Below are positions 14,758 through 39,628 of a stretch of DNA of 64,000 bases, piece by piece. The stretch is from Thermoanaerobaculia bacterium. GTDB taxonomy: Bacteria; Acidobacteriota; Thermoanaerobaculia; Multivoradales; Multivoraceae. The notes under the pieces were generated by a model. The model was given only the letters and a program-made list of their open reading frames with translations, was not told the origin of the DNA and did no database searches. A program made the translations under genes and the position numbers. The number at the start of each line of letters is the position of its first letter. The stretch's first letter is position 1. The stretch covers positions 1,472,001-1,536,000 of the forward strand of contig OY762911.1 in assembly GCA_963666565.1 (NCBI GenBank), written 5' to 3'.

Positions 14758-14945
14758 CGTCCAGTCCGCGAGCGGGTCCGGGGGGAGGGTCCCAGGGCGT
14801 CGGAGGCAAACGACTCCCTCCGCCCGACCATCGACCGACGCCGACGCGGAGTGCAGCCGACAACAGCGAGCCCCTGCTCCCCATCCTCTCCGTGAAGGCG
14901 AGCGTGCCCTGGGACCCTCCCCCCGGCCGGCTCGCGGACGGGTGC
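14758..14945 (+). repeat. 188-nt long-hairpin repeat element, copy A
   Basis: Ends CGTCCA...GGGTGC; about 35-nt inverted arms; core similar to copies at 31942, 38518 and 39441. Confidence 0.85.
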
Positions 14946-14989
14946 AACCGCCGCCGCCTCGGCAGCGTCGACCGTCGCCGCCGCAGCGG

Positions 14990-16099
14990 TCAGTCGCAGC
15001 CTTCGCGCGTCTCTTCGATGAGGCCATCGACGACGGCGTTCAGGTCGCCCGCCTCGGCGCGGGCGATCTGGCGGTCGGCGCTGGTGCCCTCGGCGAGGAT
15101 CCGGTGGACGTACTCGACCTCCTTGCGGATGTTCAGCTCGTCCAGCACGTCGTCGACGAAGTCGAGGAGTTCCTCGGTCAGAGAGCGAAGCGGCACCTCC
15201 TCGCCCTTGCCGAAGTCGATCAGCTTGCCGTCGATGCCGTAACGGATCGCGCGCCACTTGTTCTCGTAGATCAGGTGGCGGGGATAGCGGCGCCAGGCCT
15301 GGTTGTTATGGCGGAGGCGGATCAGCTTGCCGACGATCGCCATCAGGAGCGCCGTCATGCACAGCGCCTCCTCGATCTTCGTGCAGACGTCGAAGACCCG
15401 GAACTCGATCGTCGGGAACTTGGGGTGCGGCCGGACGTCCCACCAGATCTGCGTCGGCTCCTCGATGCACCTCGTCTGGACCAGCACGTTCACGAGCCGC
15501 TCGTACTCGGCGTAGGAGCGGAGCGACGGCGGCAGGCCGGAGCGGGGGAGGCTCTCGAAGACGACGGAGCGGTAGGACTTGAGCCCCGTGTTGCGCCCCT
15601 GCCAGAACGGCGAACTCGTCGACAGCGCGAGCAGGTGCGGCAGGAAGTAGAGCGACTGGTCCATCACGTCGATGCGGAGTTCCTTGTCGGGAACGCCGAC
15701 GTGGACGTGCATGCCGAAGATCAGCATGCGCCGGGCGACGTCGCCGAAGTTCTCCTGCAGCTTGATGTAGCGCTGCGCCTCCGTGACGTCCTGCTCCTGC
15801 CAGGCCGAGAACGGATGGCTGCTGGCCGCCGCGATGCGGAGTCCGTTCCGGGACGCCAGGTGCCCGATCGACCGCCGCAGCCGGATGAGCTCCTGGCGCG
15901 CCTCGTCGATCGAGCCGCAGACCTCGCTGCCGACCTCGACCTGGCACTGCAACTGCTCCGCCTTGATCTGCTCCTGGAGCACGATCTGGCCCTGCTCCAG
16001 GAACTTCTGGATGAAGGGCTTCAGTTCCCGGCTCTCGGGTTCGATGATCTGGTACTCCTCTTCGATGCCGATGGTCAGCTCGGGAAGTCTCGTCTTCAT
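14990..16099 (-). CDS. ybdK: Carboxylate-amine ligase, YbdK/GCS2 family (glutamate-cysteine ligase-like)
   Basis: TIGIEEEYQ, FGMHVHVG, LALSTSSPFW, IWWDVRPHPKFPTIEFRVFD, ENKWRAIRYG. Confidence 0.9.
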   Translation of the reverse strand: MKTRLPELTIGIEEEYQIIEPESRELKPFIQKFLEQGQIVLQEQIKAEQLQCQVEVGSEVCGSIDEARQELIRLRRSIGHLASRNGLRIAAASSHPFSAWQEQDVTEAQRYIKLQENFGDVARRMLIFGMHVHVGVPDKELRIDVMDQSLYFLPHLLALSTSSPFWQGRNTGLKSYRSVVFESLPRSGLPPSLRSYAEYERLVNVLVQTRCIEEPTQIWWDVRPHPKFPTIEFRVFDVCTKIEEALCMTALLMAIVGKLIRLRHNNQAWRRYPRHLIYENKWRAIRYGIDGKLIDFGKGEEVPLRSLTEELLDFVDDVLDELNIRKEVEYVHRILAEGTSADRQIARAEAGDLNAVVDGLIEETREGCD

Positions 16100-16233
16100 C
16101 GGGCCTGCTCCTGGGTTGGGGGATGCCGCAAGCGTATCCGGCCCGCGCGGGACGGCCGCGGCGCGCGGCCCATCCCGCGCGCGCTCCCGGGGGACCGGCG
16201 ACGCCGGGGCGCTCTGATACCGTGACGCCCGCC

Positions 16234-18006
16234 ATGAGCTGGCCCGCGACCACCGCCTGGCGCCCGCGGGTTCCCCGCGCGGTGAGCTGGCTGCTCGTTC
16301 CGCTCCTGCTTCTGGGAGCGGCCTGCGGCGGGCGCGACGCGGCGCCGGACGCCGCCGCATCCTGGCCGCTCTACGGCACGGCGCCCACGGCGCGCGGCGA
16401 GGCGGGCATGGTCGTCAGCGGCCACGGCCTCGCCTCCGACGTCGGCGCCGCGATCCTGGCGGAGGGCGGCAACGCGGTCGACGCGGCCGTCGCGGTCGGC
16501 TTCGCCCTGGCCGTCGTGCTGCCGTCCGCCGGCAACCTCGGCGGCGGCGGCTTCCTCGTCTACCGGTCGAGCGACGGCGACGCGCGCGCCCTGGACTACC
16601 GCGAGAAGGCGCCGGCCGCCGCCAGCCGGGACATGTTCCTGGACGACGAGGGCAAGGTGACGGAGGCGTCGGTCATCGGCCACCTCGCCGCCGGCGTCCC
16701 TGGCTCGGTGGCCGGCCTGTGGGAGATGCACCGGGAGTACGGCACGTTGCCCTGGGCCGACCTCGTCGCGCCGGCGGTCGAACTCGCCCGCGGCCACGAG
16801 ATCGACGAAGCCCGCTCCGGAAGCCTGGCCCGCGCGGCGTCGCGGCTCGAGCGCTTTCCCGCCAGTGCGGCCCAGTTCCTGGTCGACGGCGAGGCGCCGC
16901 CGCCGGGCACGGTCCTGGCCCAGCCCGACCTGGCCGCGACGCTGACCGCGATCGCGGAGCAGGGGCCGGACGGCTTCTACCGCGGTCCCGTCGCCGATCT
17001 GATCGTCGCCGAGATGGAACGGGGCGGCGGGCTCATCTCCCACCGGGACCTGGAGGACTACGCCCCGGTCTGGCGCGAGCCGGTCGTGGCCGAGTACCGG
17101 GGCCACACGATCTTCTCGATGCCCCCGGTCTCCTCGGGCGGACTCACCCTGGGCCTCATCCTGAACGTGCTGGAGGGCTGGGATCCGCTGCCGCCGTTCG
17201 GCAGCGCCGGCCTGGTGCACGTGGAGGCGGAGACGATGCGGCTCGCCTTCCGCGACCGCAACACCCTGCTCGGCGACCCGGACTTCATCGACATTCCCCG
17301 CGCGCAGTTCGAGTCCCAGGAGTACGCGGACGAACTGCGGGCGCGGATCGATCCCGAGCGCGCGACGCCGCTGCCGCCGATCGAGGCGGCGCCGCCGGCC
17401 GAGAGCGCCGAGACGACGCACTACTCCATCGTCGACCGCTGGGGCGCGGCGGCGTCCGTCACCACGACGATCAACGGCGCCTACGGGAACGCCGTCACGG
17501 TCGCCGGCGCCGGCTTCCTGCTGAACAACGAGATGGACGACTTCGCCGCGTCGCCGGGCCAGCCGAACCAGTTCGGGCTGGTCGAGGGCGAGAACAACGC
17601 GATCGTGCCCGGCAAGCGGATGCTCTCCTCGATGACGCCGAGCATCGTGCTCGACCCGGAAGGCGATCTGATGATGGTGGTCGGCACGCCGGGCGGCCCG
17701 ACGATCATCACCTCCGTCTACCACGCGATCTCGAACGTGATCGACCACGGGATGCCGCTCGACCGGGCGGTCGAGAGCCCGCGGGTGCATCATCAGGCGT
17801 GGCCGGACCGGATCTTCTACGAGGAGGAAGGGCTCGCCGCCGACGTGGTCCAGGAACTGGAGCGCCGCGGGCACCGGGTGGTCGGCCGGGGCCACAGCGG
17901 CGACGTCGCCGCCATCCTGGTGGAGGGGTCGAGCCTCGTCGGCGTGGCGGACCCGCGGCGAGGAGGCGGCGCCAGCGCGCCGGACTCGCCCGGCGACGCC
18001 GACTGA
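16234..18006 (+). CDS. ggt: Gamma-glutamyltransferase (lipoprotein)
   Basis: GGNAVDAAVA, DYREKAP, autocleavage site ETTHYSIVD, LNNEMDDF, PGKRMLSSMTP, GTPGG. Confidence 0.95.
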   Translation: MSWPATTAWRPRVPRAVSWLLVPLLLLGAACGGRDAAPDAAASWPLYGTAPTARGEAGMVVSGHGLASDVGAAILAEGGNAVDAAVAVGFALAVVLPSAGNLGGGGFLVYRSSDGDARALDYREKAPAAASRDMFLDDEGKVTEASVIGHLAAGVPGSVAGLWEMHREYGTLPWADLVAPAVELARGHEIDEARSGSLARAASRLERFPASAAQFLVDGEAPPPGTVLAQPDLAATLTAIAEQGPDGFYRGPVADLIVAEMERGGGLISHRDLEDYAPVWREPVVAEYRGHTIFSMPPVSSGGLTLGLILNVLEGWDPLPPFGSAGLVHVEAETMRLAFRDRNTLLGDPDFIDIPRAQFESQEYADELRARIDPERATPLPPIEAAPPAESAETTHYSIVDRWGAAASVTTTINGAYGNAVTVAGAGFLLNNEMDDFAASPGQPNQFGLVEGENNAIVPGKRMLSSMTPSIVLDPEGDLMMVVGTPGGPTIITSVYHAISNVIDHGMPLDRAVESPRVHHQAWPDRIFYEEEGLAADVVQELERRGHRVVGRGHSGDVAAILVEGSSLVGVADPRRGGGASAPDSPGDAD

Positions 18007-18031
18007 GGGGCCGGGTGGCCGTGGCCGGCGC

Positions 18032-21000
18032 ATGAACGGCCGGCGGATCTTCGCCGCGGTGACCGTCGGTCACCTCGGCATCGACATCTTCAACAGCATG
18101 GGGCCCGTGCTGCTGGCCTTCCTGCAGGCGCCGCTCGGTCTGAGCGCCGCGCAGATCGGCCTCGCGGTGGGCCTCTTCCAGGTCCTGGCCGGCACGACCC
18201 AGCCGGCGTTCGGCTGGCTGGTCGACCGGATCGGCAGCCGCTTCCTGGGTCCGCTCAGCGTCGCCGTCAACCTCGGCTGCGTGGCGCTCGCGGTCGCGGC
18301 CGCCGGCGCGACGGGCAGCTTCGTCCTGTTCCTCGTTCCGTTCGCGCTCGCCGCGGTCGCGTCGGGCGCCTTCCATCCGCTGGGCGTGATGCACTCCAGC
18401 ACGGTCAACCTGGCGCGCTCGGCCACGTTCACCGCCATCTTCTTCTTCTGCGGCCAGGTGGGGCTGACGACCGGGCCGGTCCTGGCCGGCCTCGCGCTGG
18501 ACCGCGCGGGGCTTGCCGGGATCTACTGGCTGGTGCTGATCGTCGCGCCGGTGCCGCTGTTCATGGCCTTCGCGATGGGGCCGCGGCGGGTCCATTCCGC
18601 GCCCGCCACGGCTCACCCGGGTGAGAGTCGGGCCGACGACGGCGTCGGCGACGCGGCGTCCGGCGGCCGGCTTCCCCTGCGGGTCGGCGCCGTCGCTCTG
18701 CTCGCGCTGGTCTTCGCCAGCCGGTCCTGGGCCGTGTTCGGGACGATCGCGTTTCTGCCCCTGCTGCTGAGCGGGTACGGCTACAGCTCCCTGGCCCAGG
18801 GGGTCGCCAGCGCGATGTTCCTGCTGGGCGGCGCCGTCACCGCGGTCTTCGCCGGCGCCTGGGCCGATCGCTGGGGCCGGCGCCCGGTCGTCTTTCTGAC
18901 CACGCTGCTCGGTTCGCTGCTGCTGGCCGTGTTGCCGGGCGCCGGCGGCTGGCTGTTCGCCGTCGTCCTGCCCTGCGGCGCGCTGCTGGGCGCCTCGCAC
19001 TCCATCCTGATCGTCACGGCCCAGTCGTTGCTGCCGTGGCGCCGGGGCCTGACCTCGGGGACGGCGCTCGGTTTCCTGTTCGCGACCGGCGGGATCGCCA
19101 CCTGGGCCATCGGCGAACTGGCCGACCGCTACGAACTGGCGACCGTGCTGCAGGCGGGGGCGATCGTCGGCTTGGTGTCCGCGGTCTCCTCCCTCCTCCT
19201 GCCGAGGCGGGGCCGGGCCCCGCTGGCGGCCGCGCCGGCGGTTTCGACGGCGCTCGTCGTCGCGGTCGCCGGCCTCACGCTGTTCGGCGCCCGTCCGGCG
19301 GCCGCCGGCCTGAACGGCGAGATCAACGGCCAGGTGCGCGACGCCGCGACCGACGTGCCGCTGGCGGGCGCGGAGATCAGGATCACGGGCGACCAGTTGC
19401 ACAGCACCCAGATCGTCCGCGCCGGCCGCGGCGGCAGCTACCGGGCGCCGGGCCTGCCTCCCGGCGACTACTACGTCGAGGCGAGCGTGGACGGCTACGC
19501 GACCTCCGTCGTCGAGAACCTGATCCTGGTCGCCGGCGGCGTGCTGCGGGTCGACTTCCGGATGAGGGCCGGCAGCGCCTCGGCGCTCGATCTCGTCACG
19601 TCGCCGCTGCTCGACGTGGTCACCGGCAGCGACGGCAACGTCCTCGCCGGCGACGACCTGCGCGAACTCCCTGGCGCCGCGGCGGCGTTCAACCTCGACC
19701 TGGCCTCCGGCCTCGACGGGCTGGACGGAGACGTGGCGGTCAACGGCTGGTCGCCCGGCTTCGCCACCTACCGGATCGACGGTCAGGAGAGCGCGGTCCG
19801 CGAACCGGACGCCGCTGGCATCGATCCTCGCTGGGTGGACCAGGTACGGGTCTGGACGATGGAACTGGCGGCCGCGATGGCCGGTCCGCACATCGACCTG
19901 ATCACGCGCTCGGGGGGGACCGAGTGGCGGGCCAACGGCGGCTGGTCGACGGTCGAGCCGCTCGACACAGGCAAGCGGCTGGCCCTGCGCCTGCTCGACG
20001 CCGGAGAGTCGCCGGCCGGCGGCAGGGACCGGAGACGCATCGAGGGCGACGAAGCGACCGTCTTCGCCGGCGGGCCGCTGCGGGACAAGCGGGCGCGCGC
20101 GTTCGGCGGCCATTCGAGAAGCCGCGCGCGCGGCACGGAGAACCTCTTCGGCGCGGGCGCGCCGCTGACCTGGGACGAGACGGTCGAACAGTCCGTCGGT
20201 AAGCTCGACTGGTGGGCCGGCTCGGCCAGCAACCTGACCCTCAAGCACCACAGCGCGGCCGGCGAGCTGGACGGCCGGCGACCGGCGCCGTTCGTTCTCC
20301 CGTCCGCGGACGGGAACGAGAGCGCCCGGTCGCGCCGGCAGACGACCAGCCTGAACGTGGAGTGGGGAATCACCGACCGGCTCTGGCTGCGCGTCTTCGG
20401 CGGGCGCTCCGACTTCACCGGGACGGGCGAACCGTGGCAGGACGCGGGGGCGTACTTCGCGGCGCCCGCGCCCGGCCGGGCGGCGGGCTGGTACGAGGCG
20501 GGTCCGGCGGGCCGGGTTCGGCGGGCGGTGGAGCGGCGGAACTGGGCGGTGGAACCGTCGTTCTTCTTCTTCGACCACACGCTGGAGGTCGGCGTGCAGA
20601 GCACGAAGGGCCGCCTGGATTTCGCCCGATCCGGACGCTCCGCGCGGATTCTGGAGTTGCCGGGCGGCCCGCTCGACACCTGGAGCGGCGATGGTGTCGG
20701 CGCTTACCGGCTCCGGCAGGAGAAACGCGCCGTCTACGTCCAGGACGCCTGGCGCGTTGGCGGCGCTTTCGAGCGGCGGCTGACGCTGCACGCGGGACTG
20801 CGCGCGGAAGAGGAAGAGGCGGGCCCGCTCGACCTTGAGTTCGAAGACCGCACGGAACCTCGGCTCGCGTTCGTCTGGGACGCCGCGGGCCGCGGCAGGT
20901 GGAAGGTCTACGGCGGCGCGGCGTGGTGGCACGTCGAGGTCTTCCGGCCGGGGGCGGGCCGCGCGGACGTCGACGCGGTCGCGGCCGTGGAAGCGGCCGG

Positions 21001-21988: not shown

Positions 21989-21993
21989 CCGCC

Positions 21994-22153
21994 GGGTGCG
22001 CGGGTCTTCCGACCGCTGGGTGCGCGGGTCTTCCGACCCGCATCGGGCGAGCCGCGAAGCGGCGGAGCCCGGAGAATCGGGCCGCCGGCCAAAGGCCGGC
22101 GACGCTGCCGGTCGCCGCCTCCGGCGGCAGCGGGTCGGAAGACCCGCGCACCC
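21994..22153. repeat. BIME-like cluster of three REP-like hairpins between convergent genes
   Basis: Direct copies at 21994 and 22018, inverted copy at 22130-22153. Confidence 0.9.
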
Positions 22154-22166
22154 GGTGTGGGGCGGC

Positions 22167-24917: not shown

Positions 24918-24997
24918 CAGGCGTGCATTCTCCCAGAACGTCAAGGGAGCTTCACGGAATCCCGCGGAAGCGGTTTCAATGCTAGGATTTGCGGTCT

Positions 24998-25966
24998 ATG
25001 CCCGCTCGTACCGTTGGCGCCGGCACCGTCTCGTTCGGCCTGGTCTCGATTCCCGTCCGCCTGTACTCCACCTCGGAGACCTCGGGCGCGGTCCGCTTCA
25101 ATATGCTCGACCCGACCGACAACACGCGGGTCAAGCAGCAGTTGATCAACCCGCGCACCGGCGCCGAGGTGAAGCGCAAGGAGACCATCAAGGGCTACGA
25201 GTTCGGCAAGGGCCAGTACGTCACCTTCAGCGACGAGGAGATCAAGGGCCTCCAGGAGAAGGCGTCGCCCGCCATCGAGATCACCGAGTTCGTGCCGCTC
25301 GAGGAAGTCGAGCCGATCTACTTCGAGAAGTCGTACTACCTGGGTCCCGAGAAGGGCGGCGAACGCGCCTACCGGCTGCTCAGCGAGGCGATGCGGAAGA
25401 CCGGCCGTTCGGCTCTGGCCAAGCACGCGGCGCGCGGCAAACAGTACCTCGTCATGCTCCGCCCCTTCGCGTCCGGCCTGCTGATGCAGCAACTGAAGTA
25501 CGAGGACGAGCTGAAGTCGTTCGACGAGGTGCCGCTCGGCGAGGAGACGGAGCTCAAGCCGGGCGAACTGGAGCTTGCCGTGCAGTTGATCGAGCAGATC
25601 GCGTCGGACGAGTTCAAGCCCGGCGAGTACACCGACGAGGTGCGCAAGCGGCTGTGGGACGCGATCCAGAGCAAGATCGACGGCCGCGAACTGGCCGAGG
25701 ACGAGACGGAGGCGCCTCAGGCACAGATCATCGACCTGATGGAGGCGTTGAAGGCGAGCCTGTCGAAGAACGGCGAAGCCGACGCCGGCGAGTCGGCCGC
25801 CGGCGGCGCCAGACCGAAGTCCGGCGCCCGCAAGGCCGGGGCCGCCAAGCCCAATTCCGGAACCCGCAAGCCGGCCAGGAAGGCGACGGCGCCGCGCAAG
25901 GCGACGAAGAAGAAGCCGGTTCGGCGAGCCGCGAGCACGACGGCGAAGCGGGCCGTGGCCGGTTGA
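24998..25966 (+). CDS. ku: NHEJ Ku protein
   Basis: GTVSFGLVSIPVRLY, IKGYEF, YFEKSYYLGP, IIDLMEALKASL, Lys-rich tail; divergent from ligD. Confidence 0.95.
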   Translation: MPARTVGAGTVSFGLVSIPVRLYSTSETSGAVRFNMLDPTDNTRVKQQLINPRTGAEVKRKETIKGYEFGKGQYVTFSDEEIKGLQEKASPAIEITEFVPLEEVEPIYFEKSYYLGPEKGGERAYRLLSEAMRKTGRSALAKHAARGKQYLVMLRPFASGLLMQQLKYEDELKSFDEVPLGEETELKPGELELAVQLIEQIASDEFKPGEYTDEVRKRLWDAIQSKIDGRELAEDETEAPQAQIIDLMEALKASLSKNGEADAGESAAGGARPKSGARKAGAAKPNSGTRKPARKATAPRKATKKKPVRRAASTTAKRAVAG

Positions 25967-26697: not shown

Positions 26698-27846
<1,149 letters not shown>

Positions 27847-29767: not shown

Positions 29768-29775
29768 CCGCCGCC

Positions 29776-30501
29776 ATGCCCGCCAGCAGCCTCTCCGCGG
29801 CCGAGGACTTCGAGCGCTCCCACGCCGGCGGCGCCTTCGGCACCGTTCTGGCCGATCCGCCCTGGCAGTTCACGAACCGCACCGGCAAGGTGGCGCCCGA
29901 GCACCGCCGGCTCAGCCGCTACGCGACGCTGACGCAGGAGGAGATCGAAGCGATTCCGGTCGCCGCCGCCTGCGCCGAGGACGCCCATCTCTACCTGTGG
30001 GTGCCGAATGCTCTCCTCCAGGAAGGCCTCGACGTGATGCAGCGCTGGGGCTTCACCTACAAGACGAACCTGGTCTGGCACAAGGTCCGCAAGGACGGCG
30101 GTCCCGACGGCCGCGGCGTCGGCTTCTACTTCCGCAACACGACGGAACTCGTCCTCTTCGGCGTGCGTGGCAAGCTCCGGACGCTCGCTCCCGGTCGCCG
30201 CCAGGTCAACATCATCCGCTCGCGCAAGCGGGAGCACTCCCGCAAGCCGGACGAGCTCTACGACATCGTCGAAGCGTGCAGCCCCGGCCCGTACCTGGAA
30301 CTCTTCGCCCGCGGCCGCCACTCGGAACGCTGGACCGTCTGGGGCGACCAGAGCACGGACTACGAACCCGACTGGCCCACCTACGCAAACGCCCGGTCCT
30401 GCCGCCAAAGGCCGCCAGGAGAACGCGCCGGCCGTCAGGCCCGCGCCGCCCCAACGGCCAGTCAGCCACGAACGCGGCGTCCCGCCGGCGTCAGGCGGTA
30501 G
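29776..30501 (+). CDS. MT-A70-family N6-adenine methyltransferase
   Basis: ADPPW, HLYLW, WGFTYKTNLVW, HSRKP, YLELFAR. Confidence 0.92.
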   Translation: MPASSLSAAEDFERSHAGGAFGTVLADPPWQFTNRTGKVAPEHRRLSRYATLTQEEIEAIPVAAACAEDAHLYLWVPNALLQEGLDVMQRWGFTYKTNLVWHKVRKDGGPDGRGVGFYFRNTTELVLFGVRGKLRTLAPGRRQVNIIRSRKREHSRKPDELYDIVEACSPGPYLELFARGRHSERWTVWGDQSTDYEPDWPTYANARSCRQRPPGERAGRQARAAPTASQPRTRRPAGVRR

Positions 30502-31457
30502 CGCTGGTTTCTTGCTCTGGGCACCTTGGGCCGCGTCATCTCGATCAGGCCGCCGTCGAGAGCGGGGCCGAGGTATCTCTGACGCAGCCACTTGCGGTCT
30601 CGCAGGTCCAGGGCGGCGAGCAGATCTCGCCCCGACATCTCGCCGTCCAGGACCTGCAGAAGCCGCTGTACTTGGGGGGATACTTGGGGGGATACTTGGG
30701 GGGTCGCTTCCCGCAAGGCGGCGAGGATCGCGTCCAGCACGAAACAGATGAACGGCGTGCTCTCACCTTGCCTGGAACTATCTTCGATCGCCGTGTAGTA
30801 CTCGGGCTGGCGCGTGTGCACGACGCTCTCCACCGGCACCTGTGCGAACAGCGGCTTCCAGCGGCGGAGGATGAGGGTCTGCCACAGCCGGCCGAGGCGG
30901 CCGTTGCCGTCTTCGAACGGATGGATGAACTCGAACTCGTAGTGAAACACGGAGCTCGCGATCAACGGGTGTTCGTCGGTGTCCCGCAGCCAGCCGAGGA
31001 GGTCGGCCATAAGCCCAGGCACCCGGTCGGCCGGCGGACCGATGTGATGCACGCCGTCCGGGCCGACCACGCCCACGGTGCCGGTGCGGTACCGCCCCGG
31101 CGTACCGGCGAGTTCGGCCATCATTGCAGCGTGAGCGGCCAGCAAGTCGGCCTCGCTCGCGGGCGTCCAGTCCTCGGCCAGGTCGTAGCTCCTGTTCGCG
31201 TTGCGCACCTCCTGCACATCCCTCGGCGGTCCCACGACGCGTTGGCCGTCGAGGATCGCCGACACCTGCTCCTCCGACAACACGTTGCCCTCGATGGCGA
31301 CGGAACCGTGAACCGTGCGCACCCGCGCCTCGCGCCGCAGTCGCAGGTCCAGCCCCAGTCCAGCCGCCTCGGCGTGACCGATCGCCCCGCCGATCCGCTC
31401 CACCAGGGACAGGATCCCGGGCGTGATCGTGTATGGGGGCTTGGCGGCGGGGGCCAT
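30462..31457 (-). CDS. Fic-family protein with C-terminal wHTH
   Basis: HPFEDGNGRLGR catalytic motif; GSVAIEGN inhibitory motif; PQVS repeats. Confidence 0.92.
   Translation of the reverse strand: MAPAAKPPYTITPGILSLVERIGGAIGHAEAAGLGLDLRLRREARVRTVHGSVAIEGNVLSEEQVSAILDGQRVVGPPRDVQEVRNANRSYDLAEDWTPASEADLLAAHAAMMAELAGTPGRYRTGTVGVVGPDGVHHIGPPADRVPGLMADLLGWLRDTDEHPLIASSVFHYEFEFIHPFEDGNGRLGRLWQTLILRRWKPLFAQVPVESVVHTRQPEYYTAIEDSSRQGESTPFICFVLDAILAALREATPQVSPQVSPQVQRLLQVLDGEMSGRDLLAALDLRDRKWLRQRYLGPALDGGLIEMTRPKVPRARNQRYRLTPAGRRVRG
30669..30703. repeat. 12-bp in-frame tandem repeat inside the fic gene
   Basis: (TACTTGGGGGGA) x about 3, encoding PQVS repeats. Confidence 0.85.
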
Positions 31458-31627
31458 GCCCGAGACTCTTGCACAGCCTGACCCGCACGGGCCGAGGCGC
31501 GGCGTGGAACCAGCGCTTTCGGGAGCCAACGGTTCGGGTATGCGGCGCTGACGCGTGCCCGCGGCGGCCGTAGCGCGGCAGAACCCTGGCCGCGCTACGA
31601 TGCGTTCGTCCGCTGAAGGAGACGACC

Positions 31628-31915
31628 ATGTGCAGGAACATCCGCGTCCTCTACAACTTCGAGCCGCCGGCCAGCGCCGGTGAGGTCCGCGCCGCGGCGC
31701 TCCAGTACGTTCGCAAGGTCAGCGGTTCGACCAAGCCGTCGCGCGCCAACGAGGCGGCCTTCGAGCGCGCGGTCGATGCGGTTGCCGTGGCCACGGCCGA
31801 ACTGCTCGGCGAGCTGACGACGACCGCGCCGCCGCGCGACCGGGAGGTCGAGGCCGAGAAGGCGCGTGCACGCTGGCGCAAGCGGCAGCGGCGGATGGCT
31901 GCGGCGCCCGCGTAG
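31628..31915 (+). CDS. DUF2277-family small protein
   Basis: MCRNIRVLYNFEPPA...AAALQYVRKVSG; AAGGAG Shine-Dalgarno. Confidence 0.85.
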   Translation: MCRNIRVLYNFEPPASAGEVRAAALQYVRKVSGSTKPSRANEAAFERAVDAVAVATAELLGELTTTAPPRDREVEAEKARARWRKRQRRMAAAPA

Positions 31916-31941
31916 AAGGGCGCGGCTTCGCGGCGGCGGCC

Positions 31942-32132
31942 GCACCCGCCCGTCTTGGGTCAGGAGGGGTCGGCGCCCAGGTGACGCGCGCGCTCGAGAG
32001 GAGAGGGACGGGGTTTGCGCTTGCTCCGCTTCACTCGCTCCGGTTCGGCGTCGGCTTCCGGGGAAGGCGTCGGCCGTCGCTCGTTCAGAGGCACCTGGAC
32101 GCCGACCCCTCCTGACCCGACTGGGCTGGACG
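31942..32132 (-). repeat. 191-nt long-hairpin repeat element, copy D (most divergent)
   Basis: Ends GCACCC...TGGACG; arms GGGTCAGGAGGGGTCGGCGCCCAGGTG / CACCTGGACGCCGACCCCTCCTGACCC; core CGCTCCGGTTCG(G/A)CGTCGG shared with copy B. Confidence 0.8.
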
Positions 32133-32135
32133 TCG

Positions 32136-33395
32136 TCAGGCCATCTCCTGACGCACCACCTCGTCGTAGTGGTCGATCACCCGCCGCACGTAGGCCCGCT
32201 TCTCGATGTAGCTGCCCGGGTAGAAGCTGCGCTTGAAGCCGTAGATGACCACGTTGCGCAGGTCGTCGAGGGAAAGGTCGAAGGCGTGGCAGGCCAGGGC
32301 GATCTCGTTGGTCACCGTGGTGTGGGACATGAGCCGGTTGTCGGTGCAGAGGGTGACCGAGAGGCGATCCGCCATCATCCTGCCGAAGGGGTGGTCGGCG
32401 AAGGTCTCCAGGCTCTGGATGCTCTGCAGGTTCGAGGTGATGCAGACCTCCAGGGTGATCCGCCGGTCGCTGATGTACTGGGCCAGGTTGCGGATGTAGC
32501 GCTCGGGATCCCGGGCCGCCGCCGAGTCCGGGTTGTCGCGCCGGAGCCGGTCGGCGGCGTAGAGGTGGGTGCCGTGGCCGATCCGGTCGGCCTGGAGCAG
32601 GGTGATCGCCTGGAAGATGCTCTCCGGCCCGTATGCCTCGCCGGCGTGGATCGTCTTCTTCAGGAAGTGCTGCTGCGCGTACAGGAAGGCGTCCCGATGC
32701 ACGGCGGCGGGGTTGCCGGCCTCGGCGCCGGCGAGATCGAAAGCGACGACCGGCAGCCCGAGCCGGTCGCGCGCCTCGACCACGGAACGGGCCAGCGACA
32801 GCGAGGCGGCGGCGTGGATCTCGGGCCTGGTCCAGCCGTCGAGAGCCGAGAAGAGGCCGCGGTAGTACGGGCTGTGGCCGGGACCGAACATCCGTAACGC
32901 GCAGGCGATGATCCCGTAGCGGAAGGGCGGCTCGGCGCCGCTCCGCACGCTCTCGGCGGCCTCGTGCTCGCGCTGGACCCGGGCGAGCCCCCGGTCGACC
33001 GCGGCCAGCACGCCGGCGGTGTCGAGACCGGGGCCGGTGTGGAGTTGCGGCGCCAGGCGCACCTCCAGGTAGCAGACGTTCTCGGCCAGGTTGTCGGCGC
33101 CGAGTTCGTAGGCGGCGCGCTCCAGCGCCTCGGCGGTGCAGAGCGCCGGCGCAGTGTAGGAGAAGGTGCGGAGGTAGTCCTCCAGGTCGTCGTAGCGCTC
33201 CTTGAAGACGAGTTCCAGCAGACCCTCCGGCGTCTGCGAGGGGAGTTCCAGCCGAGCGTCTCGGGCCAGCTCGATCAGCGTGTCGAGCCGGAGCGAACCG
33301 TCGAGGTGAACGTGAAGGTCGGTCTTCGGCAGCTTGCCGATCAGATCGGCCGAGGGAAGGGGTGCGTTCAAGTCGGTATCATGCGCGGTCTGCAT
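32136..33395 (-). CDS. add: Adenosine deaminase-family protein
   Basis: LPKTDLHVHLDGSLR, FDLAGAE, TIHAGEA, RIGHG, EVCITSN, LCTDN. Confidence 0.9.
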   Translation of the reverse strand: MQTAHDTDLNAPLPSADLIGKLPKTDLHVHLDGSLRLDTLIELARDARLELPSQTPEGLLELVFKERYDDLEDYLRTFSYTAPALCTAEALERAAYELGADNLAENVCYLEVRLAPQLHTGPGLDTAGVLAAVDRGLARVQREHEAAESVRSGAEPPFRYGIIACALRMFGPGHSPYYRGLFSALDGWTRPEIHAAASLSLARSVVEARDRLGLPVVAFDLAGAEAGNPAAVHRDAFLYAQQHFLKKTIHAGEAYGPESIFQAITLLQADRIGHGTHLYAADRLRRDNPDSAAARDPERYIRNLAQYISDRRITLEVCITSNLQSIQSLETFADHPFGRMMADRLSVTLCTDNRLMSHTTVTNEIALACHAFDLSLDDLRNVVIYGFKRSFYPGSYIEKRAYVRRVIDHYDEVVRQEMA

Positions 33396-33449
33396 GGCGC
33401 AGTGTACAGCGACTTTGAGGATGGGCGACCATCGGCGGGAGGCGAGACG

Positions 33450-34820
33450 ATGACGACGACCAGACGTTCCTTTCTCGGCGGCGTGGGCGGTCTCGGCGCG
33501 GCCGCCGCGGGCTTCGGCACGGCGGGCGCCGCGTTCGCCGCGCCGGCGCGCCGCAAGGCGGTGGCCCCGAGCGACCGCATCCGCGTTGGGTCCATCGGCG
33601 TCAACGGCATGGGGTCGAGCGACATGGGCTCGATGCTCGATGTCGACGGCGTCGAATGCGCGGCGCTCTGCGACGTCGACCGGAACGTGCTCGACCGGGC
33701 GGTCGAGGGCTTCACGGAACTGACCGGCAGCAAGCCGGACGCTTACACCGACTACCGCAAGCTGCTCGAGGACGACGAGATCGACGCGGTCATCGTCGCC
33801 ACCCCGGACCACTGGCACTGCAAGATCATGGTCGACGCCTGCGAGGCGGGGAAGGACGTCTACGTCGAAAAGCCGATGGCGAACTCGATCGAGGAGATCC
33901 GCATCATGCAGCGAGCCGCCAGGGCCTACGGCCGGGTCGTCCAGGTCGGCCAGTGGCAGCGCTCCGGCAAGCACTGGCAGGACGCGATGGAGTACCTCTG
34001 GTCCGGCGAACTCGGCCAGATCCGCACGGCGAAGGCCTGGGCCTACATGGACTGGGACGCGCCGGAGCGAGTGCCGGACTCGAAGCCGCCGAAGGGCGTG
34101 GACTACGACATGTGGCTGGGCCCGGCGCCGAAGCGGCCCTTCAACGAGAACCGGTTCCACTGGAACTTCCGCTGGTACTGGGACTACGCCGGCGGCCTGA
34201 TGACGGACTGGGGCGTCCACCTGATCGACATGGCGCTGATGGGCATGAAGGCGACGGCGCCGAAGTCGGTCATGTCGCTGGGCGGGGCGTTCGGCTATCC
34301 CGACGGCGCGGTCGAGACGCCGGATACCCAGCAGGCGGTGTACGAGTTCGACGACTTCACGATGGTCTGGGAGCACGCCCTGGGCATCGCGCTCGGTCCG
34401 CACCAGCGCGGGCACGGCGTGTCCTTCGTCGGCAACAGGGGCACGCTGGTCGTCGATCGGAGCGGCTGGGAAGTGCTGCCCGAGGTCGGCCGCGAGGACG
34501 GCAAGCGGTTCTACAAGACGGCCGCGATCCCCGACCGGGTGGCATCGCGCAGCCGGCGGGGTCTGGCCCAGCACACCGAGGACTTCATCGAGTGCATGAA
34601 GACCCGCGAGCAGCCGCGCTGCAACGCGGACGTCGGCGCCCTGGCCGCCGTCAACGCGCACCTCGGGAACATCGCGTTCCGCACCGGCCGGCGGGTCTAC
34701 TGGGACCACGAGGCGGGCCGGTTCATCGGCGACGACGAGGCGAACGCGCTGCTCCTGGCCGAGTACCACAACGGCTGGCAGCTTCCGGTCGTCTCGGGCG
34801 CCGAGGCTTCGGCGGGTTGA
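33450..34820 (+). CDS. Tat-exported Gfo/Idh/MocA oxidoreductase
   Basis: TRRSFL twin-arginine signal; ATPDHWH, DVYVEKP, DWGVHLID. Confidence 0.92.
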   Translation: MTTTRRSFLGGVGGLGAAAAGFGTAGAAFAAPARRKAVAPSDRIRVGSIGVNGMGSSDMGSMLDVDGVECAALCDVDRNVLDRAVEGFTELTGSKPDAYTDYRKLLEDDEIDAVIVATPDHWHCKIMVDACEAGKDVYVEKPMANSIEEIRIMQRAARAYGRVVQVGQWQRSGKHWQDAMEYLWSGELGQIRTAKAWAYMDWDAPERVPDSKPPKGVDYDMWLGPAPKRPFNENRFHWNFRWYWDYAGGLMTDWGVHLIDMALMGMKATAPKSVMSLGGAFGYPDGAVETPDTQQAVYEFDDFTMVWEHALGIALGPHQRGHGVSFVGNRGTLVVDRSGWEVLPEVGREDGKRFYKTAAIPDRVASRSRRGLAQHTEDFIECMKTREQPRCNADVGALAAVNAHLGNIAFRTGRRVYWDHEAGRFIGDDEANALLLAEYHNGWQLPVVSGAEASAG

Positions 34821-34891
34821 TTCACCGCCTGAACGCGGCCCGCGGCGCCCAGTGGCCGCGGGCGGGCGGCGCGCGGTATTGAGGTCCTGAC

Positions 34892-35794
34892 GTGGGTTCT
34901 CTCGAAGACCTGCGGCTCGGCGCCGCCACGATCCTGTTCGGCGAGGGCCGGGGCAAGTACCCCGACAACAACGCCCTGCTGGTCGAGGGCGCCGAGTCGA
35001 CGATGCTCGTCGACCCGTCGCTCGGCGTGCGCGCCCGCGGCCGGGGCGCCCTGCCGCCGGTCGACCTCGTGCTGCTCAGCCACTGCCACGAGGACCACAC
35101 CGCCGGGCTGCCGCTGTTCCGGGACGCGCCCGTCCACGTCCACGAGGAGGATCTGCCGGGCCTGCTCGACTTCGACGGTTTTCTGGACATCTTCGGCGTC
35201 GAGCCGGAGCGCCGCGAGGAGTACGGCGGCTACCTGCGGACGCGTTTCTTCTACGAGCCGCGGCCGGACGCCGTGCCGTTCCGCGACGGCGACCTGTTCG
35301 ACCTCGGCGGCGGCGTCTCGGTGCGGATCCTCCACACGCCCGGCCATACGCGCGGGCACTGCGCCCTGCTGATCGAGCCGGACGGCGTCCTGTTCCTGGG
35401 CGACATCGACCTGACCGGTTTCGGTCCGTACTACGGCGACGCGTGGTCCGACCTGGAGGAGTTCGAGCGCTCGCTCGAGCAGGTCCGCGGCATCGAGGCG
35501 AGGCACTACCTGACCGGTCACCACATCGGCCTGCTTGCCGACCGCGAGGCGTTCCTGGGGCGACTGGACCGTTACGTCGCGCGCATCGCCGACCGCGAGG
35601 GCCGCCTGCTCCAGTACCTGAGCGAGCCGCGGACGATGGAGGACATCGTCGCCCACCGCTTCGTCTATCGCCCGCACGACCGGGGCGAGGGCATCGCCAA
35701 GGTCGAACGGCGCAGCGCGCAGCTCCACCTCGACCGCCTCGAGCGCGACGGCCGGGTCGAGCGGGACGGCGACCTGTACCGCGCGACCCGGTAG
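34892..35794 (+). CDS. MBL-fold metallo-hydrolase
   Basis: SHCHEDH, HTPGHTRGH, FLGD, TGH. Confidence 0.9.
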   Translation: MGSLEDLRLGAATILFGEGRGKYPDNNALLVEGAESTMLVDPSLGVRARGRGALPPVDLVLLSHCHEDHTAGLPLFRDAPVHVHEEDLPGLLDFDGFLDIFGVEPERREEYGGYLRTRFFYEPRPDAVPFRDGDLFDLGGGVSVRILHTPGHTRGHCALLIEPDGVLFLGDIDLTGFGPYYGDAWSDLEEFERSLEQVRGIEARHYLTGHHIGLLADREAFLGRLDRYVARIADREGRLLQYLSEPRTMEDIVAHRFVYRPHDRGEGIAKVERRSAQLHLDRLERDGRVERDGDLYRATR

Positions 35795-35816
35795 GCGCAG
35801 CAACGGGTCGCTCGCT

Positions 35817-35840
35817 GGGTGCGCGGGTCTTCCGACCCGC
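35817..35840 (+). repeat. REP-like hairpin
   Basis: Exact consensus. Confidence 0.9.
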
Positions 35841-35890
35841 CCGCCGCTCCGCCCTGGGGCGTTCTATACTGCCGAACGGGAGGTTCCAGA

Positions 35891-36448
35891 TTGTCCGTCA
35901 AGACCCTTGCCGCCGTCGTTCCGGCTCTCGCCCTGGCCGCGGCGCCGCTCGCCGCCGCGCCGCCGCTGTTCGCCGAGGACGCGGCCTCCGTGGCACACCT
36001 GATCGAGCCGGACACCGTCCACCCGGCCACCGCGGAGCAGTTCAAGGCAGTCCTGGAACACCACCGCGGCAAGGTGGTCGTCGTCAACTTCTGGGCCACC
36101 TGGTGCATCCCTTGCCTTCAGGAACTCCCCGAACTCGACCTCCTGCAGGAGCGCTACGCCGACCGCGGCCTCGTCGTGCTCGCCGTTTCCATGGACGACC
36201 CGGAGAAGCTGGAGGACCGGGTCCGCCCCTTCTTCGCCAAGCGGGCGCCGGGCCTCGTCTCCTACCTCGCGTCGTCCGAGGGCGACTCGGTCGAATTCGT
36301 GACCGCGCTCGACCCGGAATGGCCGGGGGCGCTGCCGACGACGATGTTCTTCGACCGCGATGGGGAGTTCGTCAACATGCACCTCGGGCGGATGCTGTAC
36401 TCGGAGTTCGAAGAGGCCGTGCTCGAACTGCTCGGGGAGGACGCCTGA
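35891..36448 (+). CDS. TlpA-family thiol:disulfide oxidoreductase
   Basis: Signal peptide; VNFWATWCIPC; ALPTT; GGAGG before TTG. Confidence 0.9.
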   Translation: MSVKTLAAVVPALALAAAPLAAAPPLFAEDAASVAHLIEPDTVHPATAEQFKAVLEHHRGKVVVVNFWATWCIPCLQELPELDLLQERYADRGLVVLAVSMDDPEKLEDRVRPFFAKRAPGLVSYLASSEGDSVEFVTALDPEWPGALPTTMFFDRDGEFVNMHLGRMLYSEFEEAVLELLGEDA

Positions 36449-37404
36449 GCGGTCAGGCGGCGTCGGGGAAACGGCGGCCCCACAACGCGCTCGCCGAACC
36501 GGCGGTCGACCGCCGGTCCGAGCGCCGCGCCGACGCCGACTGGCTTGCGCGCCGCCTCGCCGACCCGGCCAGCCGGTTGACCGCCGTCTGGCGCGAGCGC
36601 AGCCTCATCTTCGACGCGCACGCCGGCGACCGGGGGCCGGTTCCCGGCACCGTACCGGCGGTCGAGGCGGCCGCTCTGGTCGAGCAGTCGGAGCAAGTCG
36701 TCTTCCTGGGCGAAGCGGAGGGCGTCGCCTACTTCTCGATCGACGTGTCCGACCGCGAGGATCCCCTCGCCGGTCCGCTGCGGGGCGCCGGCCGCTTCGT
36801 CGAGTTGCGCCAGGTCGGCGCCGCGATGAGCGGCCGCGGCGGCAACCTGCTCGCCTACGCCCGGGCCATGGCCACCTGGCACCGCCGCCACCGTTTCTGC
36901 GGCCAGTGCGGCGCCGCGACCGAGAGCCGCAACGCCGGCCACCTGCGGGTCTGCACGGCGTGCGGCAGCGAGCACTTTCCGCGCACCGACCCCGCCGTCA
37001 TCATGCTCGTCCACACGGAGGCCGGCGGCGACCGTTCCTGTCTGCTGGGCCGGCAGGCCTCCTGGCCGGCGGGCATGTTCTCGGCGCTCGCCGGCTTCGT
37101 CGAGCCCGGCGAGAGCCTGGAGAGCGCGGTCGCGCGCGAGGTCCGGGAAGAGACCGGCATCGCGGTGGACAAGGTCCGCTACCACTCCTCCCAGCCCTGG
37201 CCGTTTCCGACCTCGATCATGCTCGGCTTCTACGCCACCTCGCCCGGCGGCGACGTGCGGGTCGACACCGAGGAACTGGAGCAGGCCGTGTGGGCCACCC
37301 GTTCGGACCTTGAGTACGCGCTCCGCGCCCGCGAGGTGCGGCTGCCGCCGCCGTTCTCCATCGCCCGCCGCCTGATCGACGACTGGCTCCGCGACGAGCG
37401 CTGA
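36445..37404 (+). CDS. nudC: NAD(H) diphosphatase
   Basis: FCGQCG...CTAC zinc ribbon, FPRTDPAVI, Nudix box GFVEPGESLESAVAREVREETG, SQPWPFP. Probable CTG start. Confidence 0.9.
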   Translation: MSGQAASGKRRPHNALAEPAVDRRSERRADADWLARRLADPASRLTAVWRERSLIFDAHAGDRGPVPGTVPAVEAAALVEQSEQVVFLGEAEGVAYFSIDVSDREDPLAGPLRGAGRFVELRQVGAAMSGRGGNLLAYARAMATWHRRHRFCGQCGAATESRNAGHLRVCTACGSEHFPRTDPAVIMLVHTEAGGDRSCLLGRQASWPAGMFSALAGFVEPGESLESAVAREVREETGIAVDKVRYHSSQPWPFPTSIMLGFYATSPGGDVRVDTEELEQAVWATRSDLEYALRAREVRLPPPFSIARRLIDDWLRDER

Positions 37405-37422
37405 GCGCGTAGCATTGTCCCC

Positions 37423-38472
37423 ATGACCCTCGACTCGACGAATGGCGGCGCCTCGTCGGCCGCGGTGACCGACCTCCTCGGCCGGCCGTTGCGCGACCTG
37501 CGCATCTCCGTCATCGACCGTTGCAACTTCCGCTGCACGTTCTGCATGCCGGCCGACCGGGAGTACAGGTTCCTGCCGAGGCAGCAGTTGATGACGTTCG
37601 AGGAGATCGAGCGGCTGGTGCGGCTGTTCGTTCAACTCGGCGTGCGCAAGCTGCGGCTGACCGGCGGCGAGCCCCTCCTGCGGCGGGACATCGAGGATCT
37701 GGTCCGGCGTCTGGCCGCCGTTCCCGGAGTCGAGGACCTCGCCCTGACCACGAACGGCGCCCTGCTGGCGAAGAAAGCCCGCGCGCTTGCCGAGGCCGGC
37801 CTCGACCGGGTGACCGTCAGCGTCGAGTCGCTGCACGACGACGTCTTCGGCCGCGTGACCGGCCTCGGCCACGGCGTCGGCCAGGTGCTGGAGGGCATCG
37901 ACGCCGCGGCGGAAGCCGGCCTCGGCCCGATCAAGATCAACACGGTCGTCATGAAGGGAACGAACGAGGACGAGGTCGCCGACATCGCCGGCTACTTCAA
38001 GGAACGCGGCCACATCGTCCGCTTCATCGAGTTCATGGACGTCGGCACGGTGAACGACTGGAGCCTCGAGCAGGTCGTGACCGCCTCCGGGATCGCCGAC
38101 CGCATCGCCGAGCGCTGGGCCTTCGAGCCGGTCGACCGCGCCCAGCCCAGCGACGTCGCCGAGCGCTTCCGCTACCTCGACGACGGCGTCGAGTTCGGCG
38201 TCATCCCTTCCATCAGCCGCCCCTTCTGCGGGGACTGCGCCAGGGCCCGCCTCTCCTCCGACGGCCGCCTCTACACCTGCCTCTTCGCCGACACCGGCCC
38301 CTCGCTGCGCGACCGCCTCCGCGCCGGCGCCACGGACGACGACCTGCTCGCCTTCCTCGCCGCCCACTGGCGCCAGCGCGAAGACCGCTACTCCGAAGTC
38401 CGCGCCGAACGCCTCCGCGCCGGCCTGCAGCCGGCCGCGGAACGCGTCGAGATGTTCCGCATCGGCGGCTGA
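37423..38472 (+). CDS. moaA: GTP 3',8-cyclase (molybdenum cofactor biosynthesis)
   Basis: LRISVIDRCNFRCTFC, LTGGEPLLR, FCGDCARAR...YTCLF, C-terminal IGG. Confidence 0.95.
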   Translation: MTLDSTNGGASSAAVTDLLGRPLRDLRISVIDRCNFRCTFCMPADREYRFLPRQQLMTFEEIERLVRLFVQLGVRKLRLTGGEPLLRRDIEDLVRRLAAVPGVEDLALTTNGALLAKKARALAEAGLDRVTVSVESLHDDVFGRVTGLGHGVGQVLEGIDAAAEAGLGPIKINTVVMKGTNEDEVADIAGYFKERGHIVRFIEFMDVGTVNDWSLEQVVTASGIADRIAERWAFEPVDRAQPSDVAERFRYLDDGVEFGVIPSISRPFCGDCARARLSSDGRLYTCLFADTGPSLRDRLRAGATDDDLLAFLAAHWRQREDRYSEVRAERLRAGLQPAAERVEMFRIGG

Positions 38473-38517
38473 GACGCCCCGCGGCGCGGCCGCCCGGGGT
38501 GTGGCGACGTCGTCCGT

Positions 38518-38705
38518 GCACCAGCCCGCGGCGGGGCCGGGGGGAGGGGCGCCAGGGGCCGCTCGCCCTCTCGGAGAGGATGGGGAGGGTGGGCTCGCTG
38601 TTGTCGGCTGCGCTCCGGTTCGACGTCGGTTGCCGGAACGGTGTAGGCAGTCGCTGGCCTCCGACCCCCTGGCGCCCCTCCCCCCGGCCCGCAGCGGGCT
38701 GGACG
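38518..38705 (-). repeat. 188-nt long-hairpin repeat element, copy B
   Basis: Reverse-complement match to 14758-14945, for example shared GGAGAGGATGGGGAG and GGCTCGCTGTTGTCGGCTGC. Confidence 0.88.
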
Positions 38706-38710
38706 CCGTT

Positions 38711-38750
38711 GGGTGCGCGGGTCTTCTGACCCGCCGCCGCCGAAGGCGGC
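38711..38750 (+). repeat. REP-like hairpin plus GCCGCC-GAA-GGCGGC hairpin
   Basis: GGGTGCGCGGGTCTTCTGACCCGC; same position relative to the long element as at copy A. Confidence 0.88.
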
Positions 38751-38887
38751 GAACAGACGCCGCCGGCCGAAGAGACGGCGACCTCCCGGAATGTCAGGAC
38801 GGTGTGATGGCCGCTGGGGAGCAGCCCTGCCTGTGTGACCGTGCGCTGACCGGTCGGTGATTTCGCCGGAAAGGGCTCGTTCACGCG

Positions 38888-38917
38888 TTGACCGTCGGTG
38901 GACGCGGCCGGTACGCT
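38888..38917 (+). promoter_or_regulatory. Sigma70-like promoter of a probably leaderless mRNA
   Basis: TTGACC-N18-TACGCT, 7 nt upstream of the ATG at 38925. Confidence 0.55.
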
Positions 38918-38924
38918 GTCGGCG

Positions 38925-39125
38925 ATGACGACGGTCGAGCAGGCTGCGGAACGCGATCAGCGGCTTTCGGGACGCGACGAACCCGCTACTCGCGGCGACC
39001 TCTCCCTTTTGGCCGCCGAGATTCGCGCCGAGATCGCGGCCCTGGAATCTCGCCTCCTGTGGCGTCTTCTCGGCGGCGGTGGCGCCCTGCTGCTCCTTTC
39101 CCGTCTCGCCGACTTCCTTACCTGA
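38925..39125 (+). CDS. Small coiled-coil protein with C-terminal membrane anchor (DUF1640-like)
   Basis: ATRGDL...EIRAEIAALESRLLWRLL plus hydrophobic tail; own promoter. Confidence 0.65.
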   Translation: MTTVEQAAERDQRLSGRDEPATRGDLSLLAAEIRAEIAALESRLLWRLLGGGGALLLLSRLADFLT

Positions 39126-39363
39126 CGTCGGCGTTCGCCACGACCTTCAACTCCAGACCGCTCTCCTGGAGAACGCGGTCCAGTATCCCCTCCTCGCGGC
39201 AGCCCTCGAAGAAGATCGCCAGGGCCTCATGCAGCATGGCCATGGCTTCCTCGACCGTGGAGCCCTGGCTCGCTACATGAAGCCCCGGACACGAGGCTAT
39301 CCAGGCGTCCCGCTCGCGGTGGACTTCTGCAGGAACTTCGGTACCGGGGACTGTGCGGATCAC
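39118..39363 (-). CDS. HicB-family antitoxin (orphan)
   Basis: WIASCPGLHVASQGSTVEEAMAMLHEALAIFFE; GGAGG before GTG at 39363. Confidence 0.8.
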   Translation of the reverse strand: MIRTVPGTEVPAEVHRERDAWIASCPGLHVASQGSTVEEAMAMLHEALAIFFEGCREEGILDRVLQESGLELKVVANADVR

Positions 39364-39440
39364 TTGAACCTCCAAAGGCTGGAGTGCAACGTAGCACGGC
39401 CAGCCGTGAGGTCCGGCGACCTCATTCCAATGCCCGACGA

Positions 39441-39628
39441 CGTCCAACCTGAAGCGGGTCCGGGGAAGGGTCCCAGCGGGCTGGAGGCCAGCGACTGCCC
39501 TTGTCCCCTCATCGACCAACTTCGTCTCGGAGCGCAGCCGACCGAAGCGAGGGCCAAGTCTCCTCATCCACCTGGAAGGCGCGAGCGTCCGTCTGGGACC
39601 CTCCCCCGGACCCGCTTCAGGCGGGTGC
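39441..39628 (+). repeat. 188-nt long-hairpin repeat element, copy C
   Basis: Ends CGTCCA...GGGTGC; arms CCTGAAGCGGGTCCGGGGAAGGGTCCCAG / CTGGGACCCTCCCCCGGACCCGCTTCAGG; core CGGAGCGCAGCCGAC. Confidence 0.85.

Follow-up and report, generated by a model that had tools for sequence, protein, structure and literature searches.

A genus-restricted hairpin-forming DNA repeat of Thermoanaerobaculia with divergent but complementary arms

Here we describe a multicopy, hairpin-forming repeat that is represented by four copies in a 64,000-nt stretch of the genome of a Thermoanaerobaculia bacterium (contig OY762911.1, positions 1,472,001 to 1,536,000; hereafter the window, to which the coordinates in Table 1 refer). 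The arms of the hairpin vary from copy to copy and remain complementary, and the family is a genus-restricted, non-autonomous DNA repeat. The genus in question, within the Acidobacteriota, is probably Candidatus Multivorans or one near to it. We favor, with moderate confidence, the interpretation that it is a mobile hairpin specific to its genus, which moves as folded single-stranded DNA and whose arms are kept complementary at the DNA level. The family is undescribed in the literature searched, where no account of it was found; its kind, the hairpin-forming mobile repeat, is known.

A first-pass annotation of the window, made from the letters alone, had proposed a multicopy element of nearly fixed length with divergent, complementary arms. 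We built a covariance model (R1), trained it on the genome to which the window belongs (G000), and searched the window with filters off. All four annotated copies were recovered at their places with 133-159 bits, and the rest of the window scored at most 21 bits. Two remnants that had also been listed proved to be real and are internally deleted copies of the same type as copy D. Across the 4.79-Mb genome, iterated nhmmer together with the covariance model yielded 89 forward matches (96 rows, 7 of which are reverse-strand echoes). The length is almost fixed, since 72 of 74 near-full-length copies measure 184-193 nt and the two outliers 174 and 197 nt.

The anatomy of the element was derived from an alignment of these 74 copies, and the pairing figures from the model-based alignment. 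The ends are conserved as CGTCCAG...GGCGGGTGC. After the 7-nt left tail, CGTCCAG, come a stem of some 35 bp, a core of roughly 100 nt and the right tail, (C)GGGTGC. The core contains two to three short helices, which covary too, and many invariant bases. The A of the left tail just outside the stem is almost invariant (72 of 74 copies). Directly outside the left end lies the junction word CCGACGA, with counts of C57, G46, A50, C57, G60 and A39 at flank positions -6 to -1, and the left flank is better conserved than the right. The two ends are unlike in their outermost 7 nt, which do not form an inverted repeat. A terminal helix pairing CGTCC with GGGTG through G:U, which appears in single folds, was dropped because variants at these positions do not covary; the termini behave as sequence motifs and are not paired. 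As single-stranded DNA, copy C folds to -58.4 kcal/mol, compared with -38.8 +/- 3.3 for shuffles (z = -5.95).

Sequence conservation is lowest in the arms, with a mean between-copy identity of 0.56 versus 0.65 for the core, and some pairs of copies have cores that are 85% identical and arms that are 43% identical. Complementarity is nevertheless retained: 95.8% of 3091 stem cells pair versus 73.6% after shuffling, and none of 500 column shuffles reached the observed pairing. The covariation score was 0.546 versus 0.150, double-sided changes occur in 36 of the 42 pairs, and sliding the partner columns by 1-3 positions lowers the pairing to 38-50%. Covariation is very strong, so that its absence, which the first-pass annotation had named as a refutation, does not apply; what covariation does not do here is separate RNA from DNA. 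In a comparison of window positions 30001-50000 with related contigs, C-to-G and G-to-C were the commonest differences, which fits the frequent GC-to-CG swaps in the stems.

The kind of pairing is more informative. In 63 dereplicated copies, the paired cells comprise 2497 Watson-Crick pairs, 47 G:T, 29 A:C and 56 other combinations, and G:T makes up less than 2% of pairs both in this dereplicated G000 set and in the related genome G013. Summed over four genomes, G:T occurs 150 times and A:C 115 times. Wobble pairs are thus favored on neither strand, including the reverse strand that the upstream gene would transcribe; the pairing is strand-symmetric and almost exclusively Watson-Crick. A second line of evidence comes from the young D subfamily, in which 17 near-identical copies provide 629 stem cells. 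These cells contain 27 one-sided changes (9 G:T, 9 A:C and 9 other by hand tally) and 7 compensated changes, where 0.22 would be expected under independence (Poisson P = 4e-9). Seven exact second hits at about 3% stem divergence are beyond what stepwise selection on an RNA would produce.

These observations bear on the alternative that the element is a cis-acting RNA, namely a hairpin in the 3' untranslated end of the upstream gene that stabilizes, terminates or processes the mRNA, with the fold kept by RNA selection. The position of the copies speaks for such a role. In a frame-signature test on 87 copies, 61 point their right end towards the 3' end of a converging gene, versus 11 (15 not callable; P = 1.5e-9), often at a distance of 0-40 nt. 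The retention of the fold in orthologues across species and the conserved core with its covarying short helices are also consistent with an RNA. RNA families, however, usually accept far more wobble pairs than the G:T fraction given above. The transcript would be the reverse complement, in which G:U pairs would show as A:C in our alignment, and A:C is not enriched relative to G:T. No U tract follows the hairpin on the transcript strand, and on the forward strand the 74 copies share no conserved upstream sequence beyond 7 nt that could be a promoter. A comparison with Rfam gave no match at the gathering score in the window, and five copies searched with 60-nt flanks gave only two chance-level matches (E = 0.25 and 0.51). 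Together with the compensated changes in the young subfamily, these results lead us to regard the cis-acting RNA as unlikely. The description of the element as an undescribed structured ncRNA, which was one of the two options in the first-pass annotation, is not supported by them, and the pairing pattern points to upkeep at the DNA level rather than selection on RNA.

The fold is maintained not only in young copies but also in orthologous copies across species. Orthologous B2 copies are found behind the same gene in eight species, giving 28 pairwise comparisons. Between 0 and 19% of the unpaired positions differ in these pairs, and a mean of about 1.0 compensated and about 3.0 other changed pairs was counted among the 42. 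At the mean unpaired rate of about 12%, simple arithmetic on the B2 table predicts about 9 one-sided and 0.2 compensated changes. The small number of uncompensated changes implies that the fold is kept after insertion and is not merely sampled at transposition. A known process that would achieve this without any need for function is template switching at quasipalindromes, which turns imperfect inverted repeats into perfect ones (PMC7202029). It may act on the stems described here.

The distribution of the family was determined in the genus and beyond. Of 30 other genomes in the genus, 28 have matches, and copy numbers range from 0 to more than 80 across it. Within the class, only 1 of 67 genera has matches, and 130 genomes from the 66 other genera gave none at E <= 1e-5. 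The family is mobile now or was so recently. Empty sites in relatives, which the first-pass annotation had suggested looking for, do exist: the interval holding copy D lacks the element in all 22 relatives in which both anchors were found (a further 7 of the 29 loci could not be assessed). Behind another core gene, six species have no element and show gaps of 2-98 nt at the site, and 14 species (G000 included) carry elements there, which belong to three different subfamilies. Beyond the element itself, D-type copies have 20-25 nt in common on the left side and, on the right, about 40 nt containing a small hairpin (for example those at 595818, 1237317 and 1681413 of the same genome as the window), so the moved unit of the D subfamily is longer than 188 nt.

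Composite and rearranged copies were also observed. At three loci of the genome (1811717, 2085941 and 3375434), an inverted doublet of repetitive extragenic palindromic (REP) sequences is followed by the left arm of one element, into which a complete second element is inserted; two of these nested composites share 411 nt with 96.6% identity. In G013 (L220, 1134140-1135090), four tandem copies are separated by 10-13-nt spacers containing GCCGACAT, with a solitary right arm after them. Not all left and right arms of this array correspond, which points to unequal exchange among the tandem copies. In another relative, G001 (L105:1440-1760), a lone element lies between the genes that flank copies B and C in the window. 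Both of its ends, CACCCGCC...GGCGGGTG, carry a right-type tail, as expected if recombination between the like arms of an inverted pair had caused a deletion.

A copy-specific target duplication was not seen, as the longest direct repeats in the flanks of the 74 copies are distributed as in shuffled flank pairs; duplication of a fixed target word may still occur, since it is not fully excludable. This result is relevant to a further alternative, a classical MITE (a miniature inverted-repeat transposable element), which would be an internally deleted insertion sequence (IS) with terminal inverted repeats, moved in trans by a DDE transposase with target-site duplication. The long inverted arms, the relics that resemble internal deletions and the CCGACG-like word on both sides of many copies, possibly a duplicated specific target, would all suit a MITE. 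A transposase that reads terminal repeats would not permit arms of such low sequence conservation, however, and the unlike outer 7 nt of the ends, the stronger conservation of the left flank and the length of the flank repeats also argue against it. No parent IS with the same ends was found when the genome was scanned, and a MITE origin appears highly improbable to us. The other option in the first-pass annotation, a non-autonomous element mobilized as a single strand and selected on fold and length, fits the evidence, with insertion polymorphism, nested and tandem copies, the left-junction motif, the length constraint and the lack of copy-specific duplications all in agreement.

Under the favored interpretation, copies would move as folded single-stranded DNA, without target duplication and beside a CCGACGA-like motif. 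The enzyme would probably be the single HUH Y1 transposase of the REP-associated tyrosine transposase (RAYT) type, whose own REPs share the GGGTGC tag. Where the hairpin contained a mismatch, it would be reverted or copied to the other arm, so that the arms stay complementary; replication template switching in quasipalindromes and mismatch correction in the hairpin are possible routes. In addition, well-folded copies alone would be likely to seed new copies. The arms could thereby drift freely, while the core and the tails would be held by protein recognition.

With regard to the enzyme, the first-pass annotation had suggested looking for a linked HUH transposase gene. The only HUH gene of the genome is one Y1_Tnp gene (749064-749855), which is RAYT-like, has REPs on its flanks and scores 76.6 bits against the model of REP-associated tyrosine transposases (cut-off 80 bits). 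No TnpB was detected in the genome (0 matches). The RAYT reading frame enters a REP array (L001:1138-1932), its last approximately 50 residues being a REP-encoded repeat of the VRGSSDPH type, and more REP tags lie upstream. The REP GGGTGCGCGGGTCTTCYGACCCGC, allowing up to 2 mismatches, occurs 846 times in the genome versus 0-185 times in 30 relatives and is a strong lineage-specific expansion. In G022, the REPs around the RAYT gene (L290) keep the GGGTGC tag and have the stem GCGGACC...GGTCCGC instead of GCGGGTC...GACCCGC; the REP stem, too, changes in a compensated way between species. The tag is the same word as the right tail of the element. As annotated, copies A and B adjoin a REP hairpin in the same orientation at their CGTCCAG ends, 12 nt and 5 nt beyond its GCACCC tag, and 32 of 87 copies have a REP no more than 260 nt from the left end, almost always in one orientation. 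The right flank was also considered as a degenerate REP, a match that was set aside as low-complexity GC-rich sequence.

Comparison of genomes with and without the RAYT gene gave further information. Neither the RAYT nor the REP variant used as query is present in any of the six element-poor genomes of the genus. Copies below 110 bits at E <= 1e-8 account for 3 of 122 in the RAYT-bearing G000 and G013 versus 13 of 53 in the RAYT-free complete genomes G041 and G023. Watson-Crick pairing is 96.2% in G013 and 93.8% in G000, versus 89.1% in G041 and 90.7% in G023. Mobilization of the element by the RAYT is plausible, and we rate it as less likely than not.

Several points weigh against a mobile hairpin driven by the RAYT. 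The contrast just described sets two genomes against two, the genomes are related, and the model was trained on G000. Six element-rich genomes lack a RAYT, so the enzyme is not required for copies to persist. The element does not stand beside the RAYT gene at any of 6 loci, where REPs are the only flanking repeats. Single-strand transposition of the IS200/IS605 type predicts a replication-linked orientation bias, and no such bias is seen: in 37 of 87 copies the forward strand coincides with the leading strand (P = 0.20). The orientation towards gene 3' ends is not predicted for mobile DNA and may instead reflect a role in the transcript of the upstream gene. Filled and empty sites, at both loci compared, differ by more than the 188 nt, with a further 20-45 nt of flank, so that the boundaries given for the moved unit are approximate, and no excision or insertion event was seen directly.

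The surroundings of the copies were also examined. For 57 of 87 copies, the sequence 100-310 nt away on the left side is non-coding. Genes with a stop no more than 90 nt from the right end of these 87 copies end in TAG in 30, TGA in 17 and TAA in 1 case, and the genome-wide gene calls end in TAG 1340, TGA 1891 and TAA 144 times; the word TAGCGGCG recurs in the right flanks. Small accessory genes are often found between two inverted copies, for example a HicB-like/DUF7387 gene, an MqsA-like pair, or a methylase with a putative endonuclease. Only the HicB-like/DUF7387 gene was checked against Pfam, and the others were named by eye from their translations. Other inverted pairs enclose core genes, for example ruvB. 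One further explanation is that the element is the substrate of an undescribed structure-reading DNA transaction, in which a single-copy HUH enzyme or another host protein would read the branched single-stranded fold and the tails and not the arm sequence, the fold would be actively repaired in place, and the copies would be long-lived, vertically inherited marks of gene 3' ends and landing pads for cassettes. We consider this quite unlikely.

The other explanation is a structure-specific recombination site like attC, at which a recombinase would read the folded strand and insert or exchange cassettes. The short conserved tails, stems that are fixed in structure and not in sequence, and the invariant A outside the stem recall such sites. 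Copies border a variable cassette region, which is 2-98 nt in six species and up to several kb elsewhere, and several close pairs enclose genes resembling toxin-antitoxin or restriction-modification systems (mostly named by eye). Yet the pairs around cassettes are inverted, with their left ends inward, and not direct; many single copies stand beside core genes, which several pairs likewise merely enclose. An integron integrase is lacking, the best TIGR02249 match reaching 66 bits against a cut-off of 265. The attC core site has the consensus GTTRRRY, which the ends of the element do not resemble. An attC-like function is therefore very unlikely in our judgment. More generally, attC sites conserve structure over sequence and have short conserved ends, unpaired landmark bases and a position behind gene 3' ends. 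The element differs from them in lacking an integrase and direct cassette-plus-site arrays, in its end sequences and in being longer than known attC sites.

Returning to the favored mobile hairpin, its closest described kind is the REPIN. Bertels and Rainey (2011, PMC3116915) report for REPINs a constrained length and hairpin capacity, common compensatory changes and tandem clusters (flanks included), all of which are shared by the element. Like a REPIN, the element is non-coding, extragenic, present in tens to hundreds of copies and predicted to form a long hairpin as single-stranded DNA, a single-copy RAYT is present in the genome, and copy number varies strongly between relatives. A REPIN keeps two inverted REP 16-mers at its ends around a variable spacer, whereas in the element the stem ends are free and the unlike tails and the core are fixed. 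Unlike in a REPIN, the arms are not the REP GGGTGCGCGGGTCTTCCGACCCGC and differ per copy, the 6-nt GGGTGC tag alone is shared and at one end only, and the RAYT is flanked by REPs and not by the element, which has a branched core and roughly double the length.

The likeness to CGTC-tagged palindromes that the first-pass annotation had hinted at is superficial. Di Nocera et al. (2013, PMC3733652) describe CGTC-tagged REPs with stems of 8-9 bp and loops of 4-5 nt, which form head-to-head dimers and have no dedicated transposase. As in these repeats, CGTC directly precedes the stem; unlike the architecture given there, the stem is about 35 bp, the core about 100 nt, and the other end GGGTGC and not GACG.

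Elements of the IS200/IS605 type and the classical intergenic palindromes offer two more comparisons. Asymmetric ends, the absence of target duplication, dependence on folded DNA and a 'peel and paste' single-strand mechanism characterize IS200/IS605-type elements. The repeat likewise has asymmetric ends, no copy-specific target duplication and a short word 5' of the left end as a possible target or cleavage site. It differs in having no lagging-strand bias, one giant hairpin instead of subterminal ones, no TnpA beyond the RAYT-like gene and no TnpB. ERIC, Correia/NEMIS, RUP and BOX are imperfect intergenic palindromes of 100-200 nt near gene ends, often co-transcribed and lineage-specific, whose arm sequences are kept; in our element, by contrast, conservation is lowest in the arms, whose complementarity persists through compensated changes.

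The family provides a natural case of very strong covariation in multicopy DNA without evidence for an RNA function. Pipelines that take compensatory changes as proof of a structured RNA would call it a high-confidence RNA family. Two simple counter-checks are the ratio of wobble pairs to A:C mismatches and the number of compensated changes in very young copies. Free arms combined with a fixed core and unlike tails are an unusual layout for a bacterial palindromic repeat, and the family should be useful for studying the concerted evolution of hairpin arms and for asking whether enzymes of the RAYT type have substrates besides REPs. In these uncultured sponge-associated Acidobacteriota, it accounts for much of the intergenic repeat content and, together with the REPs, marks breaks in short-read assemblies. 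In contigs from four runs covering window positions 30001-50000, the short-read contigs break at copy D (31951-32106) and at REPs, and single contigs span copies B and C unchanged; these contigs contained no usable presence/absence joints at the copies. Among 24 sequencing runs listed, none was of RNA.

Table 1. Positions of the element copies, their relics and associated features in the window.
Feature	Position	Strand	Description
REP hairpin with GGGTGC tag near copy A	14722-14745	-	12 nt off the left end of copy A
Left-junction motif of copy A	14751-14757	+	CCGACAA; family consensus CCGACGA
Copy A	14758-14945	+	188 nt, full length; CGTCCAG left end, CGGGTGC right end; 155.1 bits, model positions 1-189
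Copy D	31942-32132	-	191 nt; young D subfamily; lineage-specific insertion between two convergent genes
Copy B	38518-38705	-	188 nt; right end oriented towards the upstream gene's stop codon (TGA, 38471-38473)
REP hairpin (GGGTGC tag and stem) and second small hairpin	38711-38752	+	5 nt off the left end of copy B
Variable cassette between inverted copies B and C	38753-39440		two small genes, one HicB-like/DUF7387; missing or different in relatives
Copy C	39441-39628	+	188 nt
Approximate layout of copy C	left tail 39441-39447, left arm 39448-39485, branched core 39486-39585, right arm 39586-39621, right tail 39622-39628		
Relic of D-type copy	48848-48881	-	right end joined to left arm, about 150 nt of hairpin deleted; 15.9 bits, E = 0.069; compared with copy D by eye
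Relic of D-type copy	61573-61600	+	right arm and right end; 20.9 bits, E = 0.0073; 90% complementary to 31937-31978

Directly before the second relic, positions 61527-61572 contain the extended left flank typical of D-type copies. A longer autonomous element, defined by the same ends and by complementary arms 120-12,000 nt apart, was not found in the genome. The first scan for it gave only chance matches in this GC-rich genome. In a stricter scan, the sole large match was an inverted duplication of an ABC-transporter gene segment, and a 147-nt variant of the repeat was recovered as well. This variant, located at about 3396828-3396974 of the genome on the minus strand, has the same junction word, the same tails and complementary arms around a shorter, different core.

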